Shown: positions 17,703 through 35,335 of the stretch, piece after piece
Position numbering within the stretch: the first letter of the stretch is position 1
How the letters are laid out: the number at the start of each line of letters is the position of its first letter
Source of the DNA: Candidatus Lindowbacteria bacterium RIFCSPLOWO2_12_FULL_62_27
GTDB taxonomy: Bacteria; Lindowbacteria; 2-12-FULL-62-27
DNA length: 64,000 bases
Assembly (NCBI GenBank): GCA_001784175.1
Contig: MFPR01000017.1
Location: 29,024-93,023 of the forward strand
Direction of reading: 5' to 3'
Notes under the pieces: model-generated
The model's database searches: none
What the model was told of the DNA's origin: nothing
What the model saw: only the letters and a program-made list of their open reading frames with translations
Program-made: the position numbers and the translations under genes

Positions 17703-20387
17703 ATGACGCAGGACGAAGCCGAGTGGAAGACCCGTAAAGAGCGAATCGACAAACGTCTCAAATTGCTCAACCCCGCGTGGTCCATCATCCATTACAAAGA
17801 AGGCATGGACACGTCCGTCCTGAAAGCCCACGCCGTCGAGGAGTATCCGACCCAAAACGGCCCCGCCGACTACGCGCTGTTTGTCGCCGGACGCCTTCTC
17901 GGTATACTTGAAGCAAAAAAAGTCGGTGTCGGCCCGCAGAATGTCCTCGAACAGGCCAAACGCTATGCCAAGGGTGTCACGGACGGATCTGGAAACTGGA
18001 ACGGCTTTCGCGTCCCGTTTCTATATTCCTCCAACGGCGAACTCATTTTCCACGCCGACGTCCGATCCGGCAAAATCATTTCACGCCAGCTGGCCGATTT
18101 CCATACGCCGGCCGCGCTCGCTGATTTTTTTGCTCACGCTCCCGACGCCGGCCACGCATGGCTGAAATCCACGCCGAATACGATTGATAAACTCCGCGAC
18201 TACCAAAAAAAGGCCATCGCCGCCTGTGAGTCGGCCATCCTCTCCGGCAAACGCGCCATGCTCGTCGCGATGGCAACTGGCACCGGCAAAACGTTCATGA
18301 CCGTCGCCCAAGTTTACCGCCAGCTGGAATCCAAGGCCGCCCGCCGAATCCTCTTTCTCGTCGACCGCAAAGCCCTCGCCGCGCAGGCTGTCCGCGCTTT
18401 CGCGTCGTTCCAGACGCCCCGAGGAAACAAATTCGATCAGGAGTACGAAGTTTACAGCCAGAAGTTTCGCAAGGAGGATTTCGGCGATGATGAGCCATAT
18501 GATCCGAAGCTGTTGCCGACCGAATACTTGACCAAACCGGACGCTTCAAAAACATTCGTCTATGTCTGCACCATCCAGCGCATGGCCATCAATCTCCTCG
18601 GAAAGCAGGCCTATCAGTCTGGAGGCGAAAGCGGAGAGGACGATGAGGATGCGGACAAACTCGATATTCCGATTCATGCCTTTGACGTGGTCATCGCCGA
18701 TGAGTGCCATCGCGGCTACACTTCCAAAGAAACCGGCATCTGGCGGCAGGTGCTCGACTATTTCGACGCCGTGAAAATCGGCCTGACCGCCACGCCGGCC
18801 GCCCACTCCCTGACCCTTTTCAGGGAGGTCGTCTACCGCTACACGACCGACGAGGCCATTGACGACGGCTGGCTCGTCGAATATGAACCGGTCAAAATCA
18901 ACTCGAACGTCCGCATGCAGGGCGCATTTCTCAAGGAAGGCGAACTCGTTGGCCGCGTCGACACGGAAACCGGCGTGGAAAAACTCGACGAGCTGGAGGA
19001 TGAGCGCGCCTACGACAGCAGTCAGATCGAAAGAGACATCACCGCGCCGGACAGCAACCGCAAAATTATCGCGGAAATCGCCAAATATGCTCTCGCCCAT
19101 GAAACCGAAACAGGCCGCTTTCCGAAAATCCTGATCTTCGCCGCCAACGATATCCCTCACACGTCCCACGCGCAACAACTCGTGAATATCGCGCGCGAGG
19201 TGTTCAACCGGGGGGATGACTTCGTCCAGAAAATCACCGGCGCCAAGGACGTCGACCGGCCGCTTCAGAGAATACGCGAGTTCCGAAACCGCCCCGAGCC
19301 TAAAATCGTTGTAACCGTCGACATGCTCTCAACCGGCGTCGACGTACCGGCCATCGAGTTCATCGTTTTTCTGCGCCCCGTAAAATCCCGCATCCTCTGG
19401 ACGCAGATGCTCGGACGCGGCACCCGCCGCTGTGACGCCATCAACAAAAAGAAGTTCGTCATCTTCGACTGCTTTAACGGCACGCTCATCGAATACTTCA
19501 AAAACTCCACCGATTTCAAAATCGAAATGCAGAAGGATACCGTGCCGATCGAAGAGGTCATCGAAAATATTTACAACAACGTCGACCGTGACTATCACGT
19601 CAAAGTCCTGGTACGCCGTCTGCGCCGTATTGAGCGCGATATGAGCGGCGAAGCCCGCGAACGGTTCGCGGCTTTTATTCCCGAGGGAGACATCGGCAAA
19701 TTCGCCGGCGACATCCCCCGCGCGATCAAGGCCGACTTCTCCGGCGCTATGAAACTGCTTCGCGACAAGAATTTTCAGGAACTCCTGCTGAATTACCCAA
19801 AGGCCAAACGAACTTTTTTGAAGGGATACGAGATCCAGGACACGGTCTCGTCGGAATTGGTCTTTCGCATGGGATCGGAATACAAAAAACCGGAAGACTA
19901 TCTGGTCTTGTTTGATCGGTTCGTCAAGGAACATCAAAACGAGATCGAAGCCATTCGCATCCTGCTGGCCCGGCCCAAAAAATGGAATCCGAAAGCGCTC
20001 GATGAATTGAAAAAGAAACTCGAACAGAACCAGTTCCGGCTATCGGACCTCCAAAAAGCCCACCGGCTCGTGTACCATAAGGACTTGGCCGACATCATTT
20101 CGATGATCAAGCATGCCGTGCGCAAGGAAGAGCCGGTTTTGTCGGCGGAAGAGCGGGTTGACCGCGCCATGAGCAATGTCACTTCAGGCAAGACATTCAC
20201 CGCCGAACAGCGCCAATGGCTGGATCTCATCCGCCACCATCTCGTGGAGAACCTGACGCTCGATCAGGAGGATTTCGACCTCGCGCCCATCTTCGAACAG
20301 CGCGGAGGCCTCGCCGTCGCCCGCAATGTCTTCCGTGACCGATTTGATTCTCTCATCGAGGAGATCAACTATGCCCTCGCGGCGTGA
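17703..20387 (+). CDS. hsdR: type I restriction enzyme R subunit
   Basis: N-terminal PD-(D/E)xK region (ADYALF...GILEAKK), SF2 helicase motifs MATGTGKT, DECH, GLTATP, arginine-finger-like QMLGRGTRR. Confidence 0.9.
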   Translation: MTQDEAEWKTRKERIDKRLKLLNPAWSIIHYKEGMDTSVLKAHAVEEYPTQNGPADYALFVAGRLLGILEAKKVGVGPQNVLEQAKRYAKGVTDGSGNWNGFRVPFLYSSNGELIFHADVRSGKIISRQLADFHTPAALADFFAHAPDAGHAWLKSTPNTIDKLRDYQKKAIAACESAILSGKRAMLVAMATGTGKTFMTVAQVYRQLESKAARRILFLVDRKALAAQAVRAFASFQTPRGNKFDQEYEVYSQKFRKEDFGDDEPYDPKLLPTEYLTKPDASKTFVYVCTIQRMAINLLGKQAYQSGGESGEDDEDADKLDIPIHAFDVVIADECHRGYTSKETGIWRQVLDYFDAVKIGLTATPAAHSLTLFREVVYRYTTDEAIDDGWLVEYEPVKINSNVRMQGAFLKEGELVGRVDTETGVEKLDELEDERAYDSSQIERDITAPDSNRKIIAEIAKYALAHETETGRFPKILIFAANDIPHTSHAQQLVNIAREVFNRGDDFVQKITGAKDVDRPLQRIREFRNRPEPKIVVTVDMLSTGVDVPAIEFIVFLRPVKSRILWTQMLGRGTRRCDAINKKKFVIFDCFNGTLIEYFKNSTDFKIEMQKDTVPIEEVIENIYNNVDRDYHVKVLVRRLRRIERDMSGEARERFAAFIPEGDIGKFAGDIPRAIKADFSGAMKLLRDKNFQELLLNYPKAKRTFLKGYEIQDTVSSELVFRMGSEYKKPEDYLVLFDRFVKEHQNEIEAIRILLARPKKWNPKALDELKKKLEQNQFRLSDLQKAHRLVYHKDLADIISMIKHAVRKEEPVLSAEERVDRAMSNVTSGKTFTAEQRQWLDLIRHHLVENLTLDQEDFDLAPIFEQRGGLAVARNVFRDRFDSLIEEINYALAA

Positions 20388-20440
20388 TTTCAATCTCCTC
20401 CCCCCTTGCGGGGGAGGCTGGGTGGGGGGTCGAGGACAAC

Positions 20441-21856
20441 ATGTCTGACATCGTCAACAAACTCTGGGGCTTTTGCCACACCCTCCGCCACGATGGCATC
20501 GATTACGGCGACTACATCGAACAGCTCACGTATCTGCTCTTCCTCAAAATGGCCGACGAACGCGAGGTCGTCATTCCCAAGGGCTTCGACTGGAATAGCC
20601 TCAAGACACGCTCCGGCACCGACTTGACCGACCACTACGCCGAAATCCTCCGAAAACTGCGCGAGGAAAAGGGACTGCTCGGCGACATCTTCGCCCAGTC
20701 CATGCCCCGGTTCAATAATCCCGTCAATCTCAAACGCCTCGTCACCATGATCGACGAGGAACACTGGTCGGCGATGGATGTCGACGTGAAAGGCGCCTGT
20801 TTCGAGGGACTGCTCGAGAAGGCGGCCAGCGAAGGCAAGAAAGGCGCCGGGCAATATTTCACGCCGCGCGTGCTCATTCAGTCGGTTGTCCGCGTCATGA
20901 AACCCGACCCGCGCGCCCGGACGGATTTCACCCTCTGCGACCCCGCCTGCGGCAGCGGTGGATTTCTCATGTCCGCCTATGAATGGCTCATGGGCGTCAC
21001 GAAAGGCGCGCTGGAGCGCGGCGAGATCAAACGCATCAAGACCAAGACCTACTTCGGCCAGGACCTCGTCCCGCGTCCCCGTCGCCTCGCGCTCATGAAT
21101 CTATATCTCCACGGCATCGTCCCAAAAATTTATCTCGGCGATGCCATCTATGAGCCCGATCGCGGCGAACTCTATGACTGCGTCCTCACCAACCCGCCCT
21201 TCGGCACCAAAGGCGCCAATCAAGCCCCTGACCGCGAGGATTTCACAATCGAGACCAGCAACAAACAGCTCAACTTTGTCCAGCACGTCGTGAACATCCT
21301 CAAAGACGGCGGCCGCGCCGCGATGGTTCTGCCGGACAACTGTCTCTTCGAAGGCAAAGCCGGCGAGGTCTTCAAGATTCTGATGCAGGACTGCAACCTC
21401 CACACGGTCCTGCGCCTGCCGCGCGGCACCTTCACGCCCTACAGTCAGGGCGTCAAAGCCAACGTCGTCTTTTTCCAAAAAGGCGTGAAGACCGAACACG
21501 TCTGGATTTTCGACGCCCGATCCAACGTCCCCGGCATCACCAAAAAAGACCGCCCCCTCGCCCGCGCGCACTTCGAGGAATTCGAAAAATGCTACGGCAA
21601 AGATCCCAACGGCCAGAGCAAACGCGAGGACACCGGCGAGTCGGGCCGGTTCCGCAAGTTCCACATCAGCGACATCGAAAACCGCGACTACAAACTCGAC
21701 ATCACCTGGCTCAAGGACGATTCCCTCGAAGACGCCGACGACCTCCCCGCCCCGGAAGAACTGGCCGCCGAAGCCATCACCGAACTCGAAGCCGCTGTGG
21801 ATGAACTCAAGGCAATCGTGGCACTTGTGGAAAATAATGAGGGCGTTGAGAAATGA
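20441..21856 (+). CDS. hsdM: type I restriction-modification N6-adenine DNA methyltransferase
   Basis: AdoMet motif DPACGSGGFL and catalytic NPPFG; N-terminus MSDIVNKLW typical of HsdM; ORF-track GTG at 20384 overlaps the hsdR stop. Confidence 0.9.
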   Translation: MSDIVNKLWGFCHTLRHDGIDYGDYIEQLTYLLFLKMADEREVVIPKGFDWNSLKTRSGTDLTDHYAEILRKLREEKGLLGDIFAQSMPRFNNPVNLKRLVTMIDEEHWSAMDVDVKGACFEGLLEKAASEGKKGAGQYFTPRVLIQSVVRVMKPDPRARTDFTLCDPACGSGGFLMSAYEWLMGVTKGALERGEIKRIKTKTYFGQDLVPRPRRLALMNLYLHGIVPKIYLGDAIYEPDRGELYDCVLTNPPFGTKGANQAPDREDFTIETSNKQLNFVQHVVNILKDGGRAAMVLPDNCLFEGKAGEVFKILMQDCNLHTVLRLPRGTFTPYSQGVKANVVFFQKGVKTEHVWIFDARSNVPGITKKDRPLARAHFEEFEKCYGKDPNGQSKREDTGESGRFRKFHISDIENRDYKLDITWLKDDSLEDADDLPAPEELAAEAITELEAAVDELKAIVALVENNEGVEK

Positions 21857-23358
21857 CCGACGAAATCCCGCTAGGGTGGACAAAAGCTCATATCTCCGAG
21901 ATATGTGATGTGTCGAAGGAACGCGGACGTGAGGGAATTACACCGTACCTCGAGATAGGGAACGTCGATATTGTGTCCAAGCGATACATGTTCACTGACA
22001 AGCTTTCGGTTAGAGGCTGTCAGATGGCGAAGCAAGATGATGTTCTTATTTCAAGGGTGAGACCAACCCGTGGGGCGATCGTTTGGATTCGTGAGAGCGA
22101 ATTGCACGTGTCTTCGGCTTTCACTGTACTGCGAGATTGTGGGACACTTTCAAAAAAATATCTTTGGTTATTTCTTGCTTGGAATCGTGCCTACCTCAAC
22201 CACCTTGGCGATAACTGCACTGGAACTATGTATCCGACCACTTCAGAGGATGCGATTACTGACTTTGATGTCCCTATCGCTCCACTTGCCGAGCAGAAGC
22301 GGATCGTCGAAAAACTGGACGCGGTGATGGCGCGGCTGGAGGCGTGCAAGTCCCGGCTGGCCCTCATCCCGCCCCTCCTCAAACGTTTCCGCCAATCCGT
22401 CCTCTCCGCCGCCTGCTCCGGGAAACTCACAGCCGATTGGCGCGAGCAAAATTTAATTATAGAAAATGCTGATGCTCTGCTCGACAGGATTAGAGAGAAG
22501 CGATTGGCATCAGCTCCGACCAAAAAAGAGAAGGCACGGATTGATGAAGTATTTGACGAGGGGAATCTGCGTATTGACGAGGGAGACCTTGGACTGGATG
22601 AGATTCCTGACACTTGGTTTGGCTGCCGCGTCGGCGCCGTTGGCGCGGTCTCCAACGGCAGCACGCCATCACGAAAGCGGCCGGATTTTTGGGGCGGAGC
22701 AATTCCGTGGGTCAGTTCGGGCGAAGTACGTAACAATATCATCTCGGCAACGCGCGAACGAATTACCAAAGCGGGCTACGAAGATAGTTCCGTGCGCCTC
22801 CTGCCCCGTGGCACCGTCCTGCTTGCCATGATTGGCGAGGGGAAAACCAGAGGGCAGACAGCCATCCTCCACATCGAGGCTACGATTAACCAGAACATCG
22901 CCGCCGTTGTTTTGGATCACGGTTTGCTTAGCTCCGCATACTTGTGGCGATGGTTTCAACTGCAATACGAAGCAACGCGAGAACGAGGCAGCGGGTCCGG
23001 CCCGCAGGCGTTGAACTGTCAACGAGTCCGTGAACTGCCCTTTGTTCTGCCCCCGTTGCCCGAACAACACGAAATCGTCTGTCGAGTGGAGGCGTTGTTC
23101 GCGATTGCGGACAAGATCGCGGAGCGCTACAAAAACGCCAAAGCCAACGTGGACAAACTGGCCCAATCCATCCTCACCAAAGCCTTCCGCGGCGAACTCT
23201 TGCCGCAGGACCCCTCAGACGAACCAGCCTCCTTACTCCTTGAGCGCATCCGCACACAGCGCATCAGCCGGGAAGCGCAGCAGAGCACCTCGAAGAAATC
23301 TCATCGGAATGGAATCAAAAGAGTGGCAAGACAGATACATAAGACTTTGAAAATATGA
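21853..23358 (+). CDS. hsdS: type I restriction-modification specificity subunit
   Basis: 4-bp overlap with hsdM; two target-recognition-domain halves separated by a conserved helical spacer (LAEQKRIVEKLDAVMARLE and LPEQHEIVCRVEALFAIADKI). Confidence 0.85.
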   Translation: MTDEIPLGWTKAHISEICDVSKERGREGITPYLEIGNVDIVSKRYMFTDKLSVRGCQMAKQDDVLISRVRPTRGAIVWIRESELHVSSAFTVLRDCGTLSKKYLWLFLAWNRAYLNHLGDNCTGTMYPTTSEDAITDFDVPIAPLAEQKRIVEKLDAVMARLEACKSRLALIPPLLKRFRQSVLSAACSGKLTADWREQNLIIENADALLDRIREKRLASAPTKKEKARIDEVFDEGNLRIDEGDLGLDEIPDTWFGCRVGAVGAVSNGSTPSRKRPDFWGGAIPWVSSGEVRNNIISATRERITKAGYEDSSVRLLPRGTVLLAMIGEGKTRGQTAILHIEATINQNIAAVVLDHGLLSSAYLWRWFQLQYEATRERGSGSGPQALNCQRVRELPFVLPPLPEQHEIVCRVEALFAIADKIAERYKNAKANVDKLAQSILTKAFRGELLPQDPSDEPASLLLERIRTQRISREAQQSTSKKSHRNGIKRVARQIHKTLKI

Positions 23359-23518: not shown

Positions 23519-23893
23519 TTGAATACCACGGTTCTGCATGTTGGCGAAAAGTTGAAGGTCGAGGCGGTGCTCAATCCCGACGGAAAATGTCCGGCGCAGG
23601 AATTTTTGGATGAGCAGTTGGAAAGTGACAGGCAGAAAATCAAGGCCTTATTTTTCATGGTTGCTCTCAAGGGCAATCAGTTTCGAAACGGGGAGAAATT
23701 CAAGAAGCTCGATGGCGAAATTTTCGAATTCAAGAGTTATCAAATTCGCCTCCTCTGTTTCTTTCACAGAGGCGGCAGGTTGATCATCACTCACGGACTC
23801 ATCAAACAGACGGATAACATGCGAAGAGGGGAAATCGAGAAGGCGGAGCGAATCCGCCAACAGTTTCTTGCGGAGGAGGTTTCCCATGGCTGA
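23519..23893 (+). CDS. higB: HigB/RelE-superfamily toxin (Gp49-like)
   Basis: EFKSYQIRLLCFFHRGGRLIITHGLIKQTD resembles the Gp49-like/HigB fold; overlaps the downstream HTH gene. Confidence 0.55.
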   Translation: MNTTVLHVGEKLKVEAVLNPDGKCPAQEFLDEQLESDRQKIKALFFMVALKGNQFRNGEKFKKLDGEIFEFKSYQIRLLCFFHRGGRLIITHGLIKQTDNMRRGEIEKAERIRQQFLAEEVSHG

Positions 23894-24284
23894 AGAAACG
23901 TGGTTTGAAAAGCATCACAAAACCGACGAGGAGAAGCGGCTGTTCGCGCAGGAAGTCGCCATTCTGTCCGCGCTTGAAGAAGTCTGCCGGGTGATGGAAA
24001 CGGAAAACGTCTCCCGGGCGGACATGGCGACCAAACTCGGAAAAAGCCGGGCGTTTGTAACCCAGGTGCTGCGCGGCAGCAACAACATCACGATTCGTAC
24101 GCTCGCCGATTTCGCATGGGCCTGCGGCCGCACCGTCGATATCCGACTTCGCAAAGGCGCCGGACATAACTTCGAGCCGACCGTGTATGCCGAGTGGAAA
24201 GAGTCGGCGGAAACGCAGGCGACGGTCAACCCGTCGGGACCGGCTCAACAAGTAGAAGATTTGGAATCGTCGCTGGCAGGATGA
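23886..24284 (+). CDS. higA: HigA-like HTH antitoxin with C-terminal extension
   Basis: HTH MATKLGKSRAFVTQVLRGSNNITIRTLADFA; aromatic-containing C-terminal tail (EPTVYAEWKES) compatible with a chaperone-addiction region; 8-bp overlap with toxin gene. Confidence 0.55.
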   Translation: MAEETWFEKHHKTDEEKRLFAQEVAILSALEEVCRVMETENVSRADMATKLGKSRAFVTQVLRGSNNITIRTLADFAWACGRTVDIRLRKGAGHNFEPTVYAEWKESAETQATVNPSGPAQQVEDLESSLAG

Positions 24285-24767: not shown

Positions 24768-25592
24768 TCACACCTGCTCGACGCTAAACCCCTGCTTGAA
24801 TCTGACTGTCTTGCCGCACTTCGCACAACCCGCCGTCGCGCCATTCAGCACACGGTGCTTTCCGACAAAATTCTCCGCATCGCATGATGGGCACGGGTAT
24901 TTGACCTGCCGGAGGTGGACAATTATTTCATTGCCTTTGCCGGGTTCTACGTCGTAAACCGCTTGGCAGTTGGTGATGGGACACTTCACTCCCCCTTCGG
25001 CTGTGAAACTGCCGGCGCGACGCTGTATCTGCTCTCCGCAGTCTTGGCACTGAAACTCGAAAAACTGTCCGAAATTAACCCTGAAAATCGGCGACGTCAA
25101 AATTGCCTCGCACTCATCGGCAACGGCCGCCGCCCGCTTGATCATTCCAGCCAGATTGGAAGTTTTGCCGGACTCGATCTGGTGGATCGTTAGAGCGTGG
25201 AGAAAATTCCCCAGCGCGTTGTGGTTATCGTTGGCCCACTTCCGCGAAAACCTTCTGTCCTGCCCCAGCATCTGCATTTCCTCGCCCGGTGGCGGGACAC
25301 CGTACGTGTGTTCGATCCCAACCGCCAAGCTGACGCTCTGGTCGGCATGCGGGTCAACTTCGCGCATCTCTGAAATTACGTGTCTGGGCTGCCACTTCTT
25401 GAGCGCATCATTTGGAACTTCTTTCAGGTACGCCAGCAGTTGATCATAGGTGATGTACTCAATCGTGAGACGCAACTCGAGGCAGGCATACCGGACAGAA
25501 GGTTCATCGCCCTTTGCCAACAAATTCCTTGCACGAGCGAGACATTCGCGGGCCACGCATCGCATATCGGGCACGGTTATCGTCGCCGTCAT
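24768..25592 (-). CDS. hypothetical protein with C-terminal multi-zinc-ribbon region
   Basis: Helical N-terminal half; C-terminal CQDCGEQ, CPITNC, CPSCDAEN, CAKCGK cysteine pairs. Confidence 0.5.
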   Translation of the reverse strand: MTATITVPDMRCVARECLARARNLLAKGDEPSVRYACLELRLTIEYITYDQLLAYLKEVPNDALKKWQPRHVISEMREVDPHADQSVSLAVGIEHTYGVPPPGEEMQMLGQDRRFSRKWANDNHNALGNFLHALTIHQIESGKTSNLAGMIKRAAAVADECEAILTSPIFRVNFGQFFEFQCQDCGEQIQRRAGSFTAEGGVKCPITNCQAVYDVEPGKGNEIIVHLRQVKYPCPSCDAENFVGKHRVLNGATAGCAKCGKTVRFKQGFSVEQV

Positions 25593-26146
25593 TTTGCCCC
25601 TCCCCCGGTGGCGTGAGTTATTCTGCCTGTTTTCGGCGGCCCAAACCCACCGGCTTCATCCTTCTTCCGAATAATCTCCTCCTGGTCTTTCTTGGCCTGT
25701 TTTGCCGTGTGCTTATCGCCTCTTCTTGAAGCCTCACTTTCCTCAACGACTTTTCTGGAAAAGGCTTTATCCAAGTCTTCAAAATTCTTAGGAGTCATTT
25801 CGTATTCCTCCTTTAATTGTTCGTTGCAGGACGTGTCAAAGGCCGCCCGCAAGTCAGTTTCCTTATCCAGCCGTGAATCCTCGTCGCTATCGACGTGAAC
25901 ACAAATACAGTTGCCGCCATTCTTCTCAACACATGGCCATTTCTCGTGGGATGGGATCCTATCCGAGAGGGAATCGGTTTGGCCGATATAACGAGGCGTA
26001 TGTGTGCCTCCGTTCGATCCGACCACACGTTTGCTGAATATGTAGACAGCCCCGACATCTTTGAACCTCGTGTCTGTGGTATATGCTTGGAACTTGTACT
26101 CCGTGCCACTTCCTCCTGCAAAAGTAACGTCAGAAATTTTTGACAT
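25589..26146 (-). CDS. GIY-YIG-like nuclease-domain protein
   Basis: GAVYIFSKR ... PRYIGQTDSLSDRIPSH matches the GIY-(10-11)-YIG plus Arg pattern; 4-bp overlap with the downstream zinc-ribbon gene. Confidence 0.45.
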   Translation of the reverse strand: MSKISDVTFAGGSGTEYKFQAYTTDTRFKDVGAVYIFSKRVVGSNGGTHTPRYIGQTDSLSDRIPSHEKWPCVEKNGGNCICVHVDSDEDSRLDKETDLRAAFDTSCNEQLKEEYEMTPKNFEDLDKAFSRKVVEESEASRRGDKHTAKQAKKDQEEIIRKKDEAGGFGPPKTGRITHATGGGAK

Positions 26147-26438
26147 GTGAAACTCCTTCATTATCGAAGCCCGCGGCTGCCGGCGGTCCCAGCCACCGAG
26201 GTGCTCATTGTCATCAAGCTTATGTCGTCTGCAACGCGACGACGTTCTGACCGTTCACGTAAACGTGCGCAACCCGTCGACCATCTAAATCGATGGCCTT
26301 GCTGCACAAAAAAACACTCATCACAGGGGTCGTTTCCCCCCTCTCCTCGACTGGATTGCTCTTGCTGTACGGAAGGCCGCCATGCTAACGTCACTCTGGA
26401 CTAGTGAGGGACGGGGGCGGCCTGCCGGATGCGCAAGC

Positions 26439-26466
26439 GGACGGCGTCGTTACCGTCCTTTTTTAT
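26439..26466 (+). terminator. intrinsic-terminator-like hairpin followed by T-run
   Basis: GGACGG-cgtcgtta-CCGTCC followed by TTTTTTAT; no convincing + strand CDS upstream. Confidence 0.3.
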
Positions 26467-26522
26467 GGCTGTTTCACAATCTGAAAAACAAACACCATAA
26501 AAGCCGTATCATTCATCTGGAC

Positions 26523-26774
26523 TTACTTTCTCCTTCCACGCCTGCTGTGAATCAAGTCGTTCACAGACGCAAACCCGGTTTTCTGAAGAAGCGTTCCGAC
26601 ATGCATATCGTCCCGAACGCCGAAATCGCGGTTGTACTGTTTCTCCAATGTCGAAACGTGCTTGTCGTCACGCGTGTCCCGGAGCGGTCCGTTCGCATTC
26701 CGTGTCCGATAACCCCGCATTCCTGCTGCGTCTTTGGCCATATTCATCACCCCCTTTCTCTGCCGAATGTTCAA
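26523..26774 (-). CDS. small hypothetical protein, divergent from the ATPase operon
   Basis: 83-codon ORF, hydrophilic; coding status uncertain. Confidence 0.25.
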   Translation of the reverse strand: MNIRQRKGVMNMAKDAAGMRGYRTRNANGPLRDTRDDKHVSTLEKQYNRDFGVRDDMHVGTLLQKTGFASVNDLIHSRRGRRK

Positions 26775-26846
26775 TTATCTATATGTACCATATCTGTAAA
26801 AAAAATCAAGGTTTTAGATGATAATGTTATGGGTCACAAAAAAAGC

Positions 26847-26875
26847 TTGACAAAAACATGAATTTATCATAGAGT
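26847..26875 (+). promoter_or_regulatory. putative sigma70-type promoter for the ATPase-subtilase operon
   Basis: Consensus TTGACA at 26847-26852, 17-nt spacer, TAGAGT -10-like hexamer; preceded by an A7 tract. Confidence 0.2.
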
Positions 26876-26881
26876 CACAAT

Positions 26882-28012
26882 ATGAAAGGTCTTCCGTTTA
26901 TAGGCCAATTGGCCAAAATGTCACTGAAATCTCACAACCAAGAGGCCACCCCTTATGTGGAGGCGCTTATCCGTTTGGCCGAGGAAGAAGGGGATGTTAA
27001 ATCGGCCAAGAAACTGGCGGCAATCCTCGAAGATGCCCGAAAACGGGGATTTGTCGGGTCTAATTCGTCCTCGTCGCCCGGTGATCGATATCCGATGACA
27101 ACGTCTTCCGCGACAATGGAAATGCCTGTATCGATATCGAAATTCCTGGAAGACTCCCTGCCGGCGCCGCCGGAACGGCCGACTCTGGATGCTTCCGTAT
27201 CGCAAGGTATTCGAGATTATATTTTTCATGCTTCACATGGATTGAAGGAGAACATCTTTTTTGTCGGACCTTCGGGTACAGGCAAGACCTTGACGGCTGC
27301 ATGGCTTGCCGCACAATTGGAAAAGCCGTTGTATCGTCTGGCTTATCCTCGGGTCTTCGATAGTTATCTTGGCAGAACCGCTAGAAATCTGGTCGCGGCG
27401 TTCGAGGAGGTTAAACTCCTGGGTGGGATCCTTTTTATTGACGAGGTGGACGCCATTTTGAGGTCTCGGGAACTTACAGGCGACCACGGCGAGATGCAGC
27501 GGACGGTCAATGTGCTGCTCATGGAAATCGATAGAGCCCGCGATGAATTACCGATCTTTGCCGCGACCAATCTGTTCCATAAGGTGGATACGGCGGTGGC
27601 CAGACGATTTCATCTGATACTCCACTTCAATTTGCCCTCTGACTTTTTGCGCGAGCATTATGTTCGACTGAAGGTGAAACAATATATTCCTTCGTACCTG
27701 ATGACGTCTTTGATCAGGCTGACGGAAGGATTCTCCTACGCGGATTTGGAAAAGTTGCTTGGTTGCATGCCGGATTTCGATTTACCTCCGACCGCGTTTT
27801 GGCCGGAATTCTTGCGCGTTCTTTCACAAACGTCGCCACCCGCGACCGCTCAATCTATTTCAGAATTCGCGCATTCGCCATCCCCGATACAGGCGAGAAA
27901 GCTGATTGAATGGGGTGTGGAGAAACAAGTCGTCACTCAGATGTTTGGGATATCTTCTGCCCTTCTGACGAAATGGATTCAGGGAGAGAAGCTGGAGGTA
28001 GTCCATGGCTGA
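26882..28012 (+). CDS. AAA+ ATPase (IetA-like)
   Basis: Walker A GPSGTGKT, Walker B ILFIDEVD, sensor region AATNLFHKVD. Confidence 0.75.
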   Translation: MKGLPFIGQLAKMSLKSHNQEATPYVEALIRLAEEEGDVKSAKKLAAILEDARKRGFVGSNSSSSPGDRYPMTTSSATMEMPVSISKFLEDSLPAPPERPTLDASVSQGIRDYIFHASHGLKENIFFVGPSGTGKTLTAAWLAAQLEKPLYRLAYPRVFDSYLGRTARNLVAAFEEVKLLGGILFIDEVDAILRSRELTGDHGEMQRTVNVLLMEIDRARDELPIFAATNLFHKVDTAVARRFHLILHFNLPSDFLREHYVRLKVKQYIPSYLMTSLIRLTEGFSYADLEKLLGCMPDFDLPPTAFWPEFLRVLSQTSPPATAQSISEFAHSPSPIQARKLIEWGVEKQVVTQMFGISSALLTKWIQGEKLEVVHG

Positions 28013-30413
28013 CGAACCGGGTCGGCCGCGAAGCAGCATCCTCCGGGTTGATAAGCGGAAACAGAGGACGAAAGAGTTTACCGATAAGCGGACTGGGGGT
28101 GGGTATAAAAAGATTTTTCCGGATGTACAAGAACGCTTGACCTTCGTCGCCCATCAACTGGATATCGCCATCGACGATTACAAGTCCGCTTACGCCCTGA
28201 CGGAGTCATCCGCCCCGTACCTGGTATTTGAATTGCAGCCATCGGCCATCGCCAAATCTCACAGCGCCTTGGACGTGTTAAATGATTGCGGGCTCGAAGT
28301 CGTTGCCACTCGGACTCTGGAGGAGAAGATTGTGCATGGGGTCGAAGGGGCCTTTAAGCGGCTCGGGGGCGATTTGGTGATGGCCGCGAAAGATGCCCCG
28401 ACGGACGAACAACTCAAAAAATTGGATGCGGAAGATAAGGAGATTCGGAAGATAAAAAGGGAAGAAAAACGACTTGGAAAAGAAAGTGATGCCAAGAAAA
28501 CGGTTCACCGCTATCTGCCGGGTGGGAAGTTTTCATGGAACGAGGTGGCCCAGTTCTCAACGTTCCGGAATGTCGGGTTCATACGTCCTGAAGAGAAAAT
28601 GATGGTTCCGGCCAATTTCGAATCGGCGCCGGTCTTTGTCTCGACATTCCCGTTGTGTGACAGCGCAAACGACGACATCAGAATATGGATTACATGCATT
28701 GATAGCATCATCAAGAAATACAAAACGGGTATCCGTGTTTTACGCGCCAATAAGAAATTCATGGAAAATATACAGGAACACGCGTCGGGTTTGGAATGCG
28801 ATTGGAATTTTAAAGTGAATCGGGAATACAAATCCCATCAAAAATCCTTTGTGTTTCTGATTGAAAATGCGGGTGTCAAAGCGGTGCGTGAGTTGGCCGG
28901 GTGCGAGTTTGTGCGTACGGTGGCTTTGGGACATATCCAAACAGATGTGTTGCGCGCATCTTCAAAGTTGTCCATACCATCCCCGCCTGCGGCGATTCGA
29001 TCTTTGCCGGCGGCGGGGTTGGTGGACACGGGTATTGCATCTCCTTCAAAATTGGATCCCTATATCACTTTCCGTGGTGGAGAAAATACTATCCGCAATA
29101 AAAAAGTGTTTCATGCAACGGACGTGGCCTATCTCCTTGTCCACAATGGCGCCGCCACGCCTTGGAAACCGGACGTGGCCGGATTGCCGTGTGCCATCCG
29201 CGACGTGGCCAGAATTGATGGTGGAGACGTTGACGGGGATCAGCTGCGGGCGGCCATCTGGGAGGCAACCCGGGATTCGTCGGGGGATGGAACTGTGAAT
29301 TTTTCGGCATATGTGAACGAGGGGAGGCGGGCGAAGCCTACGCCGGAAGTCTCTGTGTTTGGTGAACTGTTGGATGATATGTCATTGGAGGCCGAAAATC
29401 TCATGATCGTTTGTTCCGCCGGTAATTCCGGATCGGTGGGAATGGATTCTCCCGCCGACGGAGTTCATGTGGTTTCCGTAGGTGCCTTTACCCGCACACC
29501 GCAAGGAAACTTTGTACGGTCGGATTACTCCTGTCACGGCGGCGGGATCGCGCACAATGCCAAGCCCACTTTTGTTGTACCTGTCCATGACTTGAATAAT
29601 AAGGATTCTACCTGGGATACACTCATTCCATCGGGTTCGCCTGGCACAAGTTTCGCTGCTCCGGTTGCCACGCGAGTTCACGCCGGCCTACGGCATCGTG
29701 GATATAATCGAGATGAAGCTTTGGCGCTGATGGTGCACCACGCAAAACATCCGGGGAAGGATGTTTATTACAAGCCATCGTCAAAAGAAATTGAGGAGTT
29801 TGGGTTTGGGGTGGTTCCTTCTATCAATGAATGCGACCCGCCGGATGGTTCGAGGATAACGTTGATCTACGATGTTCCCGTCAAACTCGGCAAATTTTAT
29901 GAATTGAGATTGCCGATACCGCAAGAGCTTTCGGATTATTCGGCATTTGCCCGTCTGACTGCATACACTCGCGCGCCATGCAGCCGAGAAATGGGTGAGG
30001 AATATGTTGCCGCCGAGGTTCCGACACATCTGAGAATGTATAAAAAAGAGGTCAAAAAGAATGGAGTGCCATATGTGGATTTGCCGCCGGAGCCGGTCGA
30101 CTGGAAAGCCCGATACGAGGAACATCGCATTAAATATGGATGGAAATGGGGCACGCTGAGGCGATATAGCAAGACCATCCGGTTCGGAAAATATAAAGAA
30201 TTTGCTCTAAGGATTGGTCCGGTTATATGGCGGAAATGGGTACCAGGGACTGTGAAAGGACAAGAAACAAAGGTGCAGTGTGTTCTTTCGTTTTATCCGC
30301 TTGAGGGCGAAGCACCGCCGTTTTTTGATTTCTTCCGCAGGGCGTTTGTTGCCGCGCAGGTGGAAGTGGAGGTTCCATTGGAGGTGCAAATCGAATTGGA
30401 AGGTGAAAGTTGA
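28005..30413 (+). CDS. S8 subtilisin-family serine peptidase with N-terminal non-catalytic region (IetS-like)
   Basis: Asp motif GLVDTGIASP, His region FHATDVAYLLV, Asn CSAGNSGS, Ser GTSFAAPVA; 8-bp overlap with the ATPase gene. Confidence 0.75.
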   Translation: MADEPGRPRSSILRVDKRKQRTKEFTDKRTGGGYKKIFPDVQERLTFVAHQLDIAIDDYKSAYALTESSAPYLVFELQPSAIAKSHSALDVLNDCGLEVVATRTLEEKIVHGVEGAFKRLGGDLVMAAKDAPTDEQLKKLDAEDKEIRKIKREEKRLGKESDAKKTVHRYLPGGKFSWNEVAQFSTFRNVGFIRPEEKMMVPANFESAPVFVSTFPLCDSANDDIRIWITCIDSIIKKYKTGIRVLRANKKFMENIQEHASGLECDWNFKVNREYKSHQKSFVFLIENAGVKAVRELAGCEFVRTVALGHIQTDVLRASSKLSIPSPPAAIRSLPAAGLVDTGIASPSKLDPYITFRGGENTIRNKKVFHATDVAYLLVHNGAATPWKPDVAGLPCAIRDVARIDGGDVDGDQLRAAIWEATRDSSGDGTVNFSAYVNEGRRAKPTPEVSVFGELLDDMSLEAENLMIVCSAGNSGSVGMDSPADGVHVVSVGAFTRTPQGNFVRSDYSCHGGGIAHNAKPTFVVPVHDLNNKDSTWDTLIPSGSPGTSFAAPVATRVHAGLRHRGYNRDEALALMVHHAKHPGKDVYYKPSSKEIEEFGFGVVPSINECDPPDGSRITLIYDVPVKLGKFYELRLPIPQELSDYSAFARLTAYTRAPCSREMGEEYVAAEVPTHLRMYKKEVKKNGVPYVDLPPEPVDWKARYEEHRIKYGWKWGTLRRYSKTIRFGKYKEFALRIGPVIWRKWVPGTVKGQETKVQCVLSFYPLEGEAPPFFDFFRRAFVAAQVEVEVPLEVQIELEGES

Positions 30414-31075
30414 TGTCCCGTATACTCTTGAACCTCCCCCCTCACGACCGCCCCCGCGAGAAATTCAAAGCCAAAGGCTCCGAATCCCTGTCCGACCAGG
30501 AGCTATTGGCCATCCTGCTTGGCAGCGGCACCAAAAAATCGGACGTTTTGAAAGTCGCCGAACATATACTCAAAGAGATCGACGGCTCTAAGAAAAAATG
30601 GAGGTTGGCGGATCTTCAGAAAATCGAAGGTGTCGGCGAAGCCAAGGCCATGCAGATTCTGGCTGCGATGGAGTTTGCCCGGCGCCGCATCCAGCCCGCC
30701 GGATTTAAAATCTCGTTCCCGGCTGACGTCGTCCCCCTCATTCGCCACTACGCCGACCGCAAACAAGAACATCTGATCTGCGTCACTCTGAACGGCGCAA
30801 ACGAAATCATCGCCACCCGCGTCGTTACGGTCGGCCTCGCCGACAAAATCCAAGTCCACCCCCGTGAACTCTTCGCCGACCCCCTGACCGACCGCGCCAC
30901 CGCCGTCATCATCGCCCACAATCATACCGGCTCGGACCTCATCCCGACCCGCGAAGACATCGAGACCACCCGCCGCCTCAAGGCCGCCGGCGAAACGATT
31001 GGCATCAAATTGCTCGACCACATCATATTCAACAAAACCGGCTATTACAGTTTTCTCGAGAAAGATAATTTGTGA
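30410..31075 (+). CDS. radC: RadC-like JAB/MPN domain protein
   Basis: N-terminal HhH-like LSDQELLAILLGSG and JAB motif AVIIAHNHTGSDLIPTREDIETTRRL; ATGA overlap with subtilase stop. Confidence 0.8.
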   Translation: MMSRILLNLPPHDRPREKFKAKGSESLSDQELLAILLGSGTKKSDVLKVAEHILKEIDGSKKKWRLADLQKIEGVGEAKAMQILAAMEFARRRIQPAGFKISFPADVVPLIRHYADRKQEHLICVTLNGANEIIATRVVTVGLADKIQVHPRELFADPLTDRATAVIIAHNHTGSDLIPTREDIETTRRLKAAGETIGIKLLDHIIFNKTGYYSFLEKDNL

Positions 31076-31088
31076 ATTGAGGTAATCC

Positions 31089-32723
31089 ATGGCCACCGGT
31101 CGCAATCAGCCGTGCCCCTGCGGAAGCGCAAGGAAATACAAGAGGTGTTGCGGCAATCCGCTAAAAATGTCGCTTAAGGGCATTCATCGCCCGACAGAAA
31201 GCCGCGTCGCGGACGGAATCGCCAAAGCGCTCGAACATCACAAGGCCTCTGAACTCATCCGATGTCAACAGCAGGGACTGGGCAAGCCGATCATCTCTAC
31301 AGAACATCAGGGCAGGCGCCTCGTGGCTGTTGGAAACAAAGTCTACCATTCGACCAAATTCAAAACATTCCCTGATTTTCTGTTCGCTTATGTAAAAGGC
31401 AAACTCGGTTCGGAGTGGGGCAATGCGGAGATCGTCAAGCCCCTGGAGGAGAGGCATATTATTCTGCAATGGTACAACGAGTATTACCTCTTCCAAAAAC
31501 GGCACTTCGACAAAGACCACGAAATCCAGTCTTTTCCGGCAACGGGTGTGGTCAATTGTTATCTCGGCCTTGCCTACAGTCTGTACTTGCTGGAGCACAA
31601 CGTCGAGCTCCAGGACCGTTTGCTCAAACGGCTAAAAGACTCGGCAAATTTCCAGGGAGCGTATTACGAATTAATCGTCGCAAACTGTCTGATTCGAGCC
31701 GGATTTGATTTGGTTCTCGAAGATGAAACCGATCGTGCCTCGAAGCATTGTGAATTTTCCGCCGTTTCACAGAAGACTGGAAAAAAATACTGGGTCGAAG
31801 CCAAGATGCGGGCGGTTTCCGGCATTCTCGGTAAATCCGACCATGACGGCACCCAATCGTTGGAACCGACTTCCTCGCTGATACAGCATGTGAACAAGGC
31901 GCTTGCAAAGCCGGCGGCGGATGAACGACTCATTTTCATCGATCTCAACACCGATCCGCCCGACGGGCAGAGTCTGCCGGATTGGATGGAACGAGCCGCA
32001 CAAAAACTTGAAGGCCTCGAAAAAACTTACCAAAAAGGGGAGCGCGCTTATATTTTTGTGACGAACATGGCGTTTCACCGGCGCTTGACGGACGCCCGCC
32101 CGGCTGGCGCCGTTTTGGTTCACGGATTTGGAATTCCCGATTTTGGAAGGCCGGGGGAATATCGGCTTACGGAAATTTACAGGAAAAGACAAAAACATAA
32201 GGATGCCTATCACATTTTTGAAGCCGTCAAAGAATATCCGAAATTTCCTTCGACGTTTGACGGTAGTTTGCCATCCGAAACCTTTGGTGATGGAGGTGGT
32301 CGCATTATTATTGGAGAAACGTATTTTTTTCCTGATATGGACGAGAAGGGAATTACAGGGACCGTCACTTCTGCCATGGTGAGTGAAACTGAAAAGACAG
32401 AACATTTGGGCATTACGACAAAAGATAACGGGTCATTTATTCTCAGCAGGCCGATGACAGAGGCGGAACTGACAGATTACAAAAACCATCCCGAGGCGTT
32501 TTTTGGTGTGATTCTTCAACCACCAGGGAACGCGAATGACCCGTACGAATTATTTGAATTTTTTGTTGGATGTTATAAAAACTCGTCTAAAGAGAAATTG
32601 CTAGAATTTTTAAAGGATTCGCAGGACACCGACTCCCTCGCGGCGTTGCCTCATATGGATTTGGTACTCGAATACTGCGAACGATTGGTCGCTGCCGCAG
32701 TGGCTGGCCAAGAAAACAGATGA
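31089..32723 (+). CDS. SEC-C-motif protein with PD-(D/E)xK-like core
   Basis: N-terminal NQPCPCGSARKYKRCCG; central FDLVLEDETD ... KYWVEAKM resembling a D-E-K nuclease triad. Confidence 0.55.
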   Translation: MATGRNQPCPCGSARKYKRCCGNPLKMSLKGIHRPTESRVADGIAKALEHHKASELIRCQQQGLGKPIISTEHQGRRLVAVGNKVYHSTKFKTFPDFLFAYVKGKLGSEWGNAEIVKPLEERHIILQWYNEYYLFQKRHFDKDHEIQSFPATGVVNCYLGLAYSLYLLEHNVELQDRLLKRLKDSANFQGAYYELIVANCLIRAGFDLVLEDETDRASKHCEFSAVSQKTGKKYWVEAKMRAVSGILGKSDHDGTQSLEPTSSLIQHVNKALAKPAADERLIFIDLNTDPPDGQSLPDWMERAAQKLEGLEKTYQKGERAYIFVTNMAFHRRLTDARPAGAVLVHGFGIPDFGRPGEYRLTEIYRKRQKHKDAYHIFEAVKEYPKFPSTFDGSLPSETFGDGGGRIIIGETYFFPDMDEKGITGTVTSAMVSETEKTEHLGITTKDNGSFILSRPMTEAELTDYKNHPEAFFGVILQPPGNANDPYELFEFFVGCYKNSSKEKLLEFLKDSQDTDSLAALPHMDLVLEYCERLVAAAVAGQENR

Positions 32724-32821
32724 TTTGGAATATTGGGATCCGGCCGGTGCGCAATTTGTGGACAACGCGCCGCCTTCTCTTTCACTGTCTCTCTTTCTAT
32801 ATCTCTCTTTCCCGTGCACTC

Positions 32822-32865
32822 TGTGTCACCATTCGCGGGCATCGTGTGTCACCATCTCGGTGACA
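32822..32865. repeat. two direct 11-bp repeats TGTGTCACCAT plus inverted GGTGACA forming a 7-bp palindrome
   Basis: Repeat copies at 32822-32832 and 32845-32855; inverted core at 32859-32865; preceded by a CT-rich tract 32775-32815. Confidence 0.5.
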
Positions 32866-32870
32866 GGGAG

Positions 32871-33248
32871 TCACATATCGGGGATTGTTGTGCACGGTTT
32901 TGGGGATAACGGCAGTTCGTCCTGGATGGCGAGGAGGGTGTAGGTGTTTGACCGCCGGCGGCGGCCTACGGACGGCGGGCTTCGTTTGATCGAGATGAGG
33001 CCGAGGTCGGCCAGTTGGCGGACGACGCGGATCACGTGGCGGCGCGAGAGGGCGAGCATCCGGGCGAGGGTGTCGTAGGAGGGGTGGCAGGAGCGGTGGT
33101 TGAAATCCGCGAACCGCGCCAGGGCCGCGTAGACGCCGACGCCGATGGCGCCGATTTCGGCGGCGTAGTTGTCGATTACGATGTGGTCGATGCGAAGCCA
33201 GTGGCCCGATGGGGCCCTGGGTTTGGGGTCCGGCATTGGGTCATCCAT
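32871..33248 (-). CDS. winged-helix DNA-binding protein
   Basis: SYDTLARMLALSRRHVIRVVRQLADLGLI wHTH-like segment. Confidence 0.4.
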   Translation of the reverse strand: MDDPMPDPKPRAPSGHWLRIDHIVIDNYAAEIGAIGVGVYAALARFADFNHRSCHPSYDTLARMLALSRRHVIRVVRQLADLGLISIKRSPPSVGRRRRSNTYTLLAIQDELPLSPKPCTTIPDM

Positions 33249-34162: not shown

Positions 34163-35335
34163 ATGCGCGTCAGGGTCATTCAACGAAAGGGCGCTTGGTG
34201 GATCGACTATTACTATCTGGACGAAACGGGCGCTTTGCGAAGAAAATACGAAAAGATCGGCCCGGGCAGGAAATTTGCGGAGACGGTGGCCGCCAAGCGC
34301 CGCGTGGAAATTCTGGAAGGAAAATTTCTGGACCGCCGTCGTTTCAAGCCCATCACGTTTGCGGACTTTATCCGGGAATTCGACGACAAGCACATGCGGT
34401 TTTTGAGAATTTACCGGCATGGCGGCAAGCAGTATCTCCGCCATCTGGTTTCCTTCTTTGGCGCAAGGCAACTCATGTCCATTTCGCAATTCGACGCCGC
34501 GCGGTTCAAGGTCCATTTCATGAGCCGGAAAACGCGCGCTGGAACCCCGCCGGCGAAATCGACCTTCAACCGGTATCTGTCGACTCTCATTTGCATCATG
34601 AACAAAGCGGTCGAATGGGGACATCTCCCGCAAAATCCGCTGTCGCGGGTGAAGAAGGAGCGAGAGGACGAAAAGCCGATGCGAATTTTAACGGCCGCCG
34701 AAAAAGTACGTCTCCTCGAAGTCGCGCTGGAGGATGGCCAGGAAGCGCACTCGCTCATCACGTTGGCGCTCAACACAGGTCTTAGGCGTGGTGATCTTCT
34801 GCGTCTTCAAATGAACGCGGCCATGATGCGTGAGCGAGAAATCCATCTCACGATGCAAAAAACCCGCCACGCCATTCATGTGCCGCTCAACAGAGCCGCC
34901 GAGTCTGCGATCAAAGCGTTGAACCGGGGCGACGACGAATTGTTATTCCCACCGAGGCGCGCGGACTCGAAAGACTCGCGCTGGCACTATGCATTGTGGC
35001 TAAAACTTGCAAATAGGGCCCAACTTCGTTATTGTCGTTTCCATGATTTGCGTCACACCTTCGCCACGGATCTTTTGCGGCGGGGCGTGAACATCAAAGT
35101 GGTCAAGGAGCTCCTGGGTCACCGGTCGATCCAAACGACAATGCGATATTTGCATTTCGTGGAGATCGACCGAAGGGCCGCGGTGGACACGCTGGAACCC
35201 GCCGCCGACGCCCGTGAGCCCCGTATGGCCCGGCAGTTTCCAATGCCAACGAATGCCGACTTACAGAACGCAACTGGAAACCTACTGGAGACCAAATGGA
35301 GACCAGAACGTCAAGTCGAGGAAGCGATCGCATGA
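34163..35335 (+). CDS. int: tyrosine-type site-specific recombinase/integrase
   Basis: C-terminal catalytic region HDLRHTFATDLLRRGVNIKVVKELLGHRSIQTTMRYLH with R, H-x-x-R and Y. Confidence 0.9.
   Translation: MRVRVIQRKGAWWIDYYYLDETGALRRKYEKIGPGRKFAETVAAKRRVEILEGKFLDRRRFKPITFADFIREFDDKHMRFLRIYRHGGKQYLRHLVSFFGARQLMSISQFDAARFKVHFMSRKTRAGTPPAKSTFNRYLSTLICIMNKAVEWGHLPQNPLSRVKKEREDEKPMRILTAAEKVRLLEVALEDGQEAHSLITLALNTGLRRGDLLRLQMNAAMMREREIHLTMQKTRHAIHVPLNRAAESAIKALNRGDDELLFPPRRADSKDSRWHYALWLKLANRAQLRYCRFHDLRHTFATDLLRRGVNIKVVKELLGHRSIQTTMRYLHFVEIDRRAAVDTLEPAADAREPRMARQFPMPTNADLQNATGNLLETKWRPERQVEEAIA

Follow-up and report, generated by a model that had tools for sequence, protein, structure and literature searches.

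In a 64,000-nucleotide stretch of DNA from Candidatus Lindowbacteria bacterium RIFCSPLOWO2_12_FULL_62_27 (GCA_001784175.1, contig MFPR01000017.1, positions 29,024-93,023 of the forward strand; hereafter the window), an open reading frame (ORF) on the plus strand (31089-32723; ATG start, 544 codons plus stop) encodes a SEC-C-capped protein of 544 amino acids (aa) with a predicted PD-(D/E)xK fold, as judged from the sequence itself, its homologues and an AlphaFold2 (AF2) model. We propose, with moderate confidence, that this gene is an independent, mobile single-gene cassette and that its product is a self-contained, metal-dependent PD-(D/E)xK endonuclease at work in genetic conflict, whether in defense or in exclusion. 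The in silico support for this proposal is drawn from the fold, the conservation of the catalytic motif, the solitary organization of the gene, its patchy spread, its residence in mobile elements and defense islands and its independence of the adjacent IetA-IetS-RadC module. We infer metal-dependent nuclease activity from sequence and model, take DNA as the assumed substrate, and regard the role in defense as a prediction.

The many conserved full-length homologues indicate that the protein is real and not the product of a chance ORF. A search of 5.8 billion proteins returns more than 1356 matches at 90% clustering, the best 120 of which align over their full length at 50-60% identity and, if they have a name at all, are labeled only 'SEC-C domain-containing' or 'hypothetical'; HMMER against 1.84 billion cluster representatives (50% identity) recovers 978 clusters at E ≤ 1e-30 and 1955 at E ≤ 1e-10. 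Eighty columns are invariant in an alignment of 37 sequences. The body of the protein is nonetheless unmatched in Pfam, NCBIfam, PADLOC-DB and PHROGs, where only the 19-residue SEC-C motif finds a counterpart, and Protein Data Bank (PDB) searches with phmmer and with a profile return nothing credible besides that same motif. At the DNA level, a Shine-Dalgarno-like GAGG (31079-31082, plus strand, read directly from the sequence) stands with a 5-nt spacer before the ATG, inside the 13-nt gap that follows the stop codon of the upstream RadC gene (31073-31075).

The AF2 model, built with the 37-sequence alignment, has a mean predicted local distance difference test score (pLDDT) of 83.5 and a predicted template modeling score of 0.80. 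An initial sequence-only reading had proposed a restriction-endonuclease-like core and named structure prediction as a check, and the model bears the proposal out: residues 188-350 (31650-32138) form a predicted nuclease core with the alpha-beta-beta-beta-alpha-beta order of the PD-(D/E)xK fold, comprising helix 188-203, strands 206-210, 223-227 and 233-240, helix 264-273 and strand 280-285, and continuing with helix 298-311 and strands 320-327 and 340-347. Canonical PD-(D/E)xK enzymes carry an acid at the start of strand 2, a (D/E)xK signature in strand 3 and, often, a glutamate from helix 1. The four putative catalytic residues are suitably placed in the model, with E194 (codon 31668-31670) in helix 188-203, E222 (31752-31754) just before strand 223-227, and E237-A-K239 (31797-31799 and 31803-31805) in strand 233-240; all four are invariant in the 37 close homologues, with D285, N287, T325 and N326 as further core invariants. 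The core is also the most conserved segment of the protein, with 21 of 53 positions invariant.

More divergent variants at 25-40% identity, from Caballeronia plasmid p2, Rhizobium pRlX5, Agrobacterium pAt and a 426-aa clade of archaeal and Gastranaerophilales origin, likewise preserve E194, E237 and K239 without exception. Position 222 is occupied by E or D only: the 426-aa clade has D there, and Rhizobium pRlX5 shows 'PEF', the textbook PD position. This allows the D-E-K triad of the sequence-only reading, placed in FDLVLEDETD (residues 206-215) and KYWVEAKM (233-240), to be revised in part: its E-x-K half, E237 and K239, stands, whereas its 'D' is not conserved in distant relatives, the LEDETD loop (L-E211-D212-E213-T-D215) being lost in one distant member (L096) and replaced by CAETEA in pRlX5. 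The replacement makes D212 an unlikely essential acid, and on both alignment and model E222 of the HCEF motif is the likelier one; within the main clade, the LEDETD loop may still contribute to the binding of metal or substrate.

On the predicted model, the protein is nearest by fold to the CdiA-CT toxin domains and to HamA. Structural matches include HamA (8zue, 7.2; 8vxy, 5.8), AF1548 and an XisH-like protein, the CdiA-CT domains of EC869, E479 and Yptb, BsmI, PaqCI, NucC, HindIII, AspBHI, LlaBIII and N.BspD6I, as well as YaeQ, NucS, Can2, SfsA, Hjc, SduA and the Avs4 nuclease; the best structural match is a tRNase. The core is preceded by a conserved N-terminal alpha/beta domain without any library match (residues 42-187, 31212-31649), in which the model and the alignments place a long helix, a QQQGLGxPI motif, a sheet of three strands and a bundle of helices in which H123, H170, N171 and R181 are invariant. 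It is followed by a helical connector (351-400, 32139-32288; modeled helices 360-399) with an invariant H370 and a P387-x-T389-F390 motif, by a small SH3/Tudor-like beta-barrel insert (401-457, 32289-32459; five strands across 411-455) and by a C-terminal helical bundle (458-544, 32460-32720; modeled across 458-543). The barrel and the bundle are the most variable structured parts, the bundle above all, and the barrel is missing from the 426-aa and 484-aa variants.

The N-terminal SEC-C motif, also recognized in the sequence-only reading, is confirmed by a match to PF02810 (E 3.1e-8; score 33.7 bits, gathering cut-off 20.4) and by sequence relatives in the PDB that consist solely of the SecA and YchJ zinc motifs. 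The knuckle, assigned to residues 5-23 (31101-31157) and occupying residues 1-23 in the AF2 layout, contains PCPCGSARKYKRCCG (residues 8-22, nt 31110-31154) and fits the ligand pattern CxC-x8-C[CH] with C9, C11, C20 and C21. The SEC-C profile is matched by all 37 aligned homologues, in which C9, C11 and C20 are invariant; some members carry a CxxC variant of the knuckle, which a regular-expression count missed, so that this count ran low. Between the knuckle and the N-terminal domain lies a linker (residues 24-41, 31158-31211) that is the most variable stretch of the protein (mean column entropy 2.97 bits; none of its 18 positions invariant) and in which residues 28-38 fall below a pLDDT of 50. 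By analogy with the C-terminal tail of SecA, the knuckle would be a docking or regulatory module on a disordered tether. The SecA metal-binding domain is reported to bind SecB and ribosomes (bioRxiv 10.1101/613315), and YchJ, a further SEC-C protein, has been described as a redox-sensing transcription factor (PMC13377102).

The 426-aa clade retains the core but not the knuckle, which argues that the SEC-C motif is accessory and not catalytic, and it is the only clade shown to be SEC-C-free. An earlier estimate from profile start positions, by which about one-fifth of the family would lack the motif, is weakened by a mis-called start: the member P0071 (L183, 7880-8000) was called at an internal ATG and has an in-frame SEC-C motif, CPLC...CC, upstream. 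The wider absence of SEC-C in gene calls is thus at least partly an artifact, and database entries that seem SEC-C-free need to be checked at the DNA level. When used as query, the 426-aa variant retrieves only 14 close clusters before the main family is reached. This clade also lacks the SH3-like insert, and at both of the loci examined (L094, 5944-8603; L092, 5797-8207) a gene for a protein of 317-458 aa without Pfam or PADLOC match begins 2 nt after its stop; the pair may represent a two-gene form of the system. At the other extreme, the 830-aa member P0179 has a C-terminal extension of about 290 residues (approximately 545-830) with a GSxxRG...SDxG signature like that of minimal nucleotidyltransferases and no Pfam match.

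Homologues at 50-60% identity are found in Alphaproteobacteria, Ignavibacteria, Nitrospirota, Acidobacteriota, Scalinduaceae, Verrucomicrobia and Bdellovibrio-like genomes. Further hosts include Beta- and Gammaproteobacteria and a cyanobacterial metagenome-assembled genome (MAG); many of the alphaproteobacterial ones are Bradyrhizobium and sphingomonads, and both a Methanobacteriaceae genome and Gastranaerophilales carry the 426-aa short form. Relatives are present on eight PLSDB plasmids, and phages almost never carry the family (3 matches in 2.9 million IMG/VR contigs). This patchy cross-phylum distribution is, on sequence evidence, one of horizontal spread. Burkholderia phage phi644-2 has a decayed, split copy beside an rve-type integrase gene (L178, 4001-4258 and 5670-5939), reduced to 93 N-terminal and 89 C-terminal residues, each with an in-frame stop and with other genes in between.

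Among the 177 loci with a family member that were collected, 167 of them non-duplicate, the genomic surroundings are those of a single-gene unit: the 148 immediate neighbors spread over 154 different Pfam families and show no partner gene in Pfam and PADLOC scans, and a co-directional neighbor lies within 60 nt at only about 10% of loci. All-against-all BLAST of 749 neighboring ORFs finds nothing recurrent besides serine recombinases, present at 8 loci, tyrosine integrases at 7 and an ABC ATPase at 5. A recombinase or relaxase is present at 22 of the 98 loci of at least 8 kb, and restriction-modification (R-M) genes at seven, as counted with a crude, small query panel. Individual loci pair the family with Type III R-M, AbiEi/AbiEii and a DUF2971/PDC-S31-like gene (L009); with HsdR, DUF4145 and HipA (L183); with SIR2_2, T5orf172 and AbiE (L186); with an integrase and Type I R-M on a 20-kb plasmid (L097); with an integrase and VapBC on a pAt plasmid (L095); with a MobA/MobL relaxase (L001); with a DUF5906 primase and HTH_36 (L006); with a relaxase and an integrase (L184); with ParA, two resolvases and an ArdC-type giant protein (L185); with DUF2971 and Roc-COR (L004); with Y1 transposases beside recA (L008); and with IetAS and a resolvase (L052). 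DUF2971-type genes adjoin family members at two unrelated loci (L004, 6042-7046; L009, 9681-10301), the latter gene also matching PADLOC PDC-S31; DUF2971 is a domain of the lactococcal Aristaios defense protein.

It is important to note that several observations weigh against the proposal of a mobile conflict nuclease. No significant sequence-profile link to a described PD-(D/E)xK family emerges from Pfam or the PDB profile search: PDDEXK_11 and PDDEXK_9 are matched only below threshold (E 0.069 in three of 37 members and E 0.087 in one of 37, respectively), ten further variants yield zero PDDEXK profile matches, and Foldseek against PDB and BFVD finds nothing below E 0.001 besides SH3-size fragments of about 50 residues. 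Furthermore, PADLOC-DB holds no model for the protein, our literature search found no experiment on any family member, and full-length identity of 50-60% across phyla is unusually high for a defense gene with a phage-specific sensor. Many loci also have ordinary housekeeping neighbors (RecA, GatB, EPSP synthase, DnaB, glutamine synthetase), and the association with mobile and defense regions, clear in kind, stands as raw counts.

In the window, the gene closes a tightly packed, co-directional array on the plus strand that consists of orf159 (26382-26861), IetA (26882-28012), IetS (28005-30413), RadC (30410-31075) and the SEC-C gene itself, with no terminator predicted in the 13-nt gap after RadC. 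The IetA-IetS-RadC module (26882-31075) is identified by PADLOC (IetA, E 6e-44; IetS, E 1e-39) and Pfam (RadC, E 2e-34) and is context to the SEC-C gene, not part of it. The description of the gene as the last of an operon holds by position and not functionally, since RadC is present at none of the loci of its relatives with enough upstream DNA, and an IetAS pair, a divergent one, at only one. Could the protein nevertheless be an accessory or effector of IetA-IetS(-RadC), for example a nuclease activated or processed by the IetS subtilase, perhaps through cleavage in linker 24-41? The close packing would fit, as would a second, independent locus in a Gammaproteobacteria MAG (L052, 1639-7635) with the same order and a resolvase upstream, in which IetA (PADLOC E 1e-144), IetS (E 3e-294) and a 135-aa ORF precede the family member and IetA is 30% identical to that of the window and of a different PADLOC subtype; two such cases in about 95 loci would be far above random placement. 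Shared residence in defense islands predicts the two co-locations equally well, however, and they are best read in that way. Of roughly 95 further loci that have a homologue and 4 kb or more of DNA upstream of it, over 95% lack IetA and IetS and none has RadC. The protein also matches no Iet model, PADLOC-DB and NCBIfam featuring only IetA/IteA and IetS/IteS. The window IetS is itself almost an orphan, without relatives in IMG/VR and with a sole relative at E ≤ 1e-20, 77% identical, on another contig (L182, 1-3357) that keeps IetA-IetS-RadC with RadC again starting at the IetS stop. There the DNA is 81% identical to the window up to window position 31073, inside the RadC stop codon, where the similarity breaks off, and RadC has no SEC-C gene behind it, which marks the SEC-C gene as a separate cassette. 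Together, these data make an Iet-dependent role improbable. From the same comparison RadC does appear to belong to this Iet subtype, of which the RadC/JAB protein may be a third component; in annotation of the window, the SEC-C gene is thus not to be counted in the Iet system, and RadC apparently is.

The remaining alternatives concern what the nuclease would act upon, and whether it acts at all. An RNA-directed toxin, brought by its SEC-C knuckle to the ribosome or a SecB-like partner and there cutting tRNA, rRNA or mRNA with an abortive-infection (Abi) type of outcome, would agree with the reported partners of SecA's metal-binding domain (bioRxiv 10.1101/613315), which is the founding SEC-C motif. 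A universal target would likewise suit the very high cross-phylum conservation, and SEC-C-type motifs also end the E2, E1-E2 and PDC-S12 models of PADLOC. We nevertheless consider this toxin rather unlikely: apart from the best match, the structural matches are mostly DNases (restriction enzymes, HamA, NucC, Hjc, NucS), the PD-(D/E)xK fold alone does not separate RNA from DNA, the 426-aa clade keeps its core without a knuckle, and ribosome docking by an N-terminal SEC-C motif would be an extrapolation from SecA. A broader version, on which we place similarly low weight, casts SEC-C as a general targeting device that parks a conflict nuclease on a conserved host machine, with the ribosome or a SecB-like chaperone as candidates; the nuclease would survey or attack nucleic acid there, and its release could occur by proteolysis, for instance by IetS at the two Iet loci. 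Such targeting would jointly explain why a mobile gene is so highly conserved across phyla, why the best structural match is a tRNase and why terminal SEC-C motifs recur in Rugutis, a lactococcal protein discussed below, and in the PADLOC models. The protein might instead be a DNA-processing enzyme that serves its mobile element in recombination, end-processing, replication restart or entry exclusion and has no anti-phage function. The only recurrent neighbors are recombinases, relaxases and replication-type helix-turn-helix (HTH) genes, and such high conservation would be more usual for an enzyme whose substrate is fixed, yet the placement of the gene relative to integrase or relaxase varies, it has no constant partner, many loci have no mobile-element gene within 6-10 kb and the carrier elements are mutually unrelated, so we rate such a service role as unlikely. 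Finally, inactive PD-(D/E)xK domains are common, and with no profile match above threshold the core could be catalytically inactive, leaving the protein to act as a scaffold for binding or regulation; retention of the four catalytic positions from 25% to 60% identity, with only the E/D swap at 222, in what is the most conserved segment of the protein makes this highly improbable.

Under the favored explanation of a self-contained conflict endonuclease, residues 188-350 would supply catalysis through E194, E222, E237 and K239, flanked by the conserved domain 42-187 on one side and on the other by a variable C-terminal module of connector, SH3/Tudor-like barrel and bundle, which is likely to hold the parts for substrate or trigger recognition; the SEC-C knuckle on its 18-residue tether would dock or regulate and stand outside catalysis. 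With no methyltransferase, immunity gene or conserved partner, the enzyme would have to restrain itself (the Type I hsdM found in the window is part of an hsdRMS set of its own). It might do so by cutting only a foreign feature, in the manner of Type IV enzymes, or by remaining auto-inhibited until triggered by infection or invasion, as in Shedu-like or Abi-like systems.

By analogy, the nearest systems in working principle would be single-polypeptide PD-(D/E)xK defense nucleases such as Shedu, along with solitary Type IV enzymes. Shedu (SduA, DUF4263) is a single-gene defense system that combines a PD-(D/E)xK core with variable sensor domains; the Lindowbacteria protein is unmatched by the PADLOC Shedu models, has unrelated flanking domains, features SEC-C and the SH3-like insert, and has a defense role that is a prediction. 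Type IV enzymes (Mrr, AspBHI/MspJI) share the solitary state without a cognate methyltransferase, whereas our protein matches neither Mrr_cat nor any further nuclease family of Pfam and has no Pfam match to SRA, EVE, winged-helix or another known reader of modified bases; its SH3-like barrel is not known as such a reader. HamA of Hachiman (DUF1837) is reported to act as a HamAB complex (PMC11914072); the protein has no PADLOC HamA match, and a HamB helicase is adjacent neither here nor at the homologue loci. Compared with the CdiA-CT toxin domains of B. pseudomallei 1026b (tRNase, 4g6v) and EC869 (DNase, 4g6u), it is cytoplasmic and stand-alone with large extra domains, is 11% identical, and lacks the CdiA delivery region, an adjacent immunity gene and any conserved downstream gene.

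As for the knuckle, the SecA C-terminal tail, YecA and YchJ present the same CxC(x8)C[CH] motif on a flexible tether, differing in that theirs is C-terminal and the remainder of each protein unrelated. The only experimentally tested defense protein with an N-terminal SEC-C cap found in our literature search is Rugutis, a lactococcal, Abi-like protein of 359 aa. As its architecture is described in PMC11381338, it has in common with the Lindowbacteria protein a single gene on mobile DNA, an N-terminal SEC-C motif of about 20 residues and a body without annotated domain. The trigger of Rugutis is phage c2's large terminase (PMC12184496). A 25-aa SEC-C peptide query aimed at Rugutis gave zero matches, and neither the full protein nor the 426-aa variant retrieved a Lactococcus plasmid by tblastn. 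A 53-aa SEC-C query matches 1096 PLSDB plasmid records, 403 of them from Klebsiella and many conjugative, with Lactococcus not among the ten commonest genera listed. Terminal SEC-C knuckles are a common feature of plasmid-borne proteins and occur in several unrelated families, YecA/UPF0149 and DUF4145 among them. PADLOC matches of the protein itself are restricted to residues 3-49, the SEC-C part, and fall to the E2, E1-E2 and PDC-S12 models, placing SEC-C-type ends among defense-associated models.

The gene resides in a low-GC island of about 30 kb (window 6000-35335; GC 0.53 against 0.65 in the flank) that ends at a tyrosine integrase (34163-35335) beside HTH_17 and HTH_36 genes and is followed by the core genes Aminotran_4, RuvX and YceG; it is thus cargo near the integrase end of the island. 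The island further features a complete Type I R-M system (17703-23358; hsdR 894 aa, hsdM 490 aa, hsdS 501 aa, with overlapping stops and starts), and hhalign of the family profile against the N-terminal region of this HsdR gave no signal (probability 0.2). Between the R-M and Iet modules, a small Gp49/HigB-like gene (23519-23893) overlaps an HTH regulator-like gene (23868-24284) in what looks like a toxin-antitoxin pair. On the minus strand, two overlapping genes of 274 and 190 aa (24768-26161) have weak CoiA_N, zinc-binding and endonuclease matches, and the 159-aa orf159 just upstream of IetA matches no family. Downstream of the SEC-C gene, the next gene (HTH_36, 32871-33248) lies on the opposite strand and matches phage 'replication initiator O-like' PHROGs. 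The stretch between the two convergent 3' ends (32776-32854) contains three tandem copies of TCTCTTTC..., spaced by 14 nt, and two 23-nt direct repeats ending in GTGTCACCA; because the adjoining HTH_36 gene resembles phage replication initiator O, these repeats may serve the island as iterons or as binding sites of another kind.

That a defense island should hold a solitary nuclease is in itself no surprise; the point of interest is that the family is large and absent from current libraries. If the proposal is true, it would define a large family of single-gene nuclease cassettes, one that comprises about 1000 clusters at 50% identity, spans many bacterial phyla, extends to plasmids and a few archaea and is missing from Pfam (besides the 19-residue SEC-C motif), NCBIfam, PHROGs and PADLOC-DB, and would add one self-contained effector architecture to the defense repertoire. 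The family would also offer a tractable model for the function of terminal SEC-C knuckles outside SecA, a question that Rugutis has already raised.

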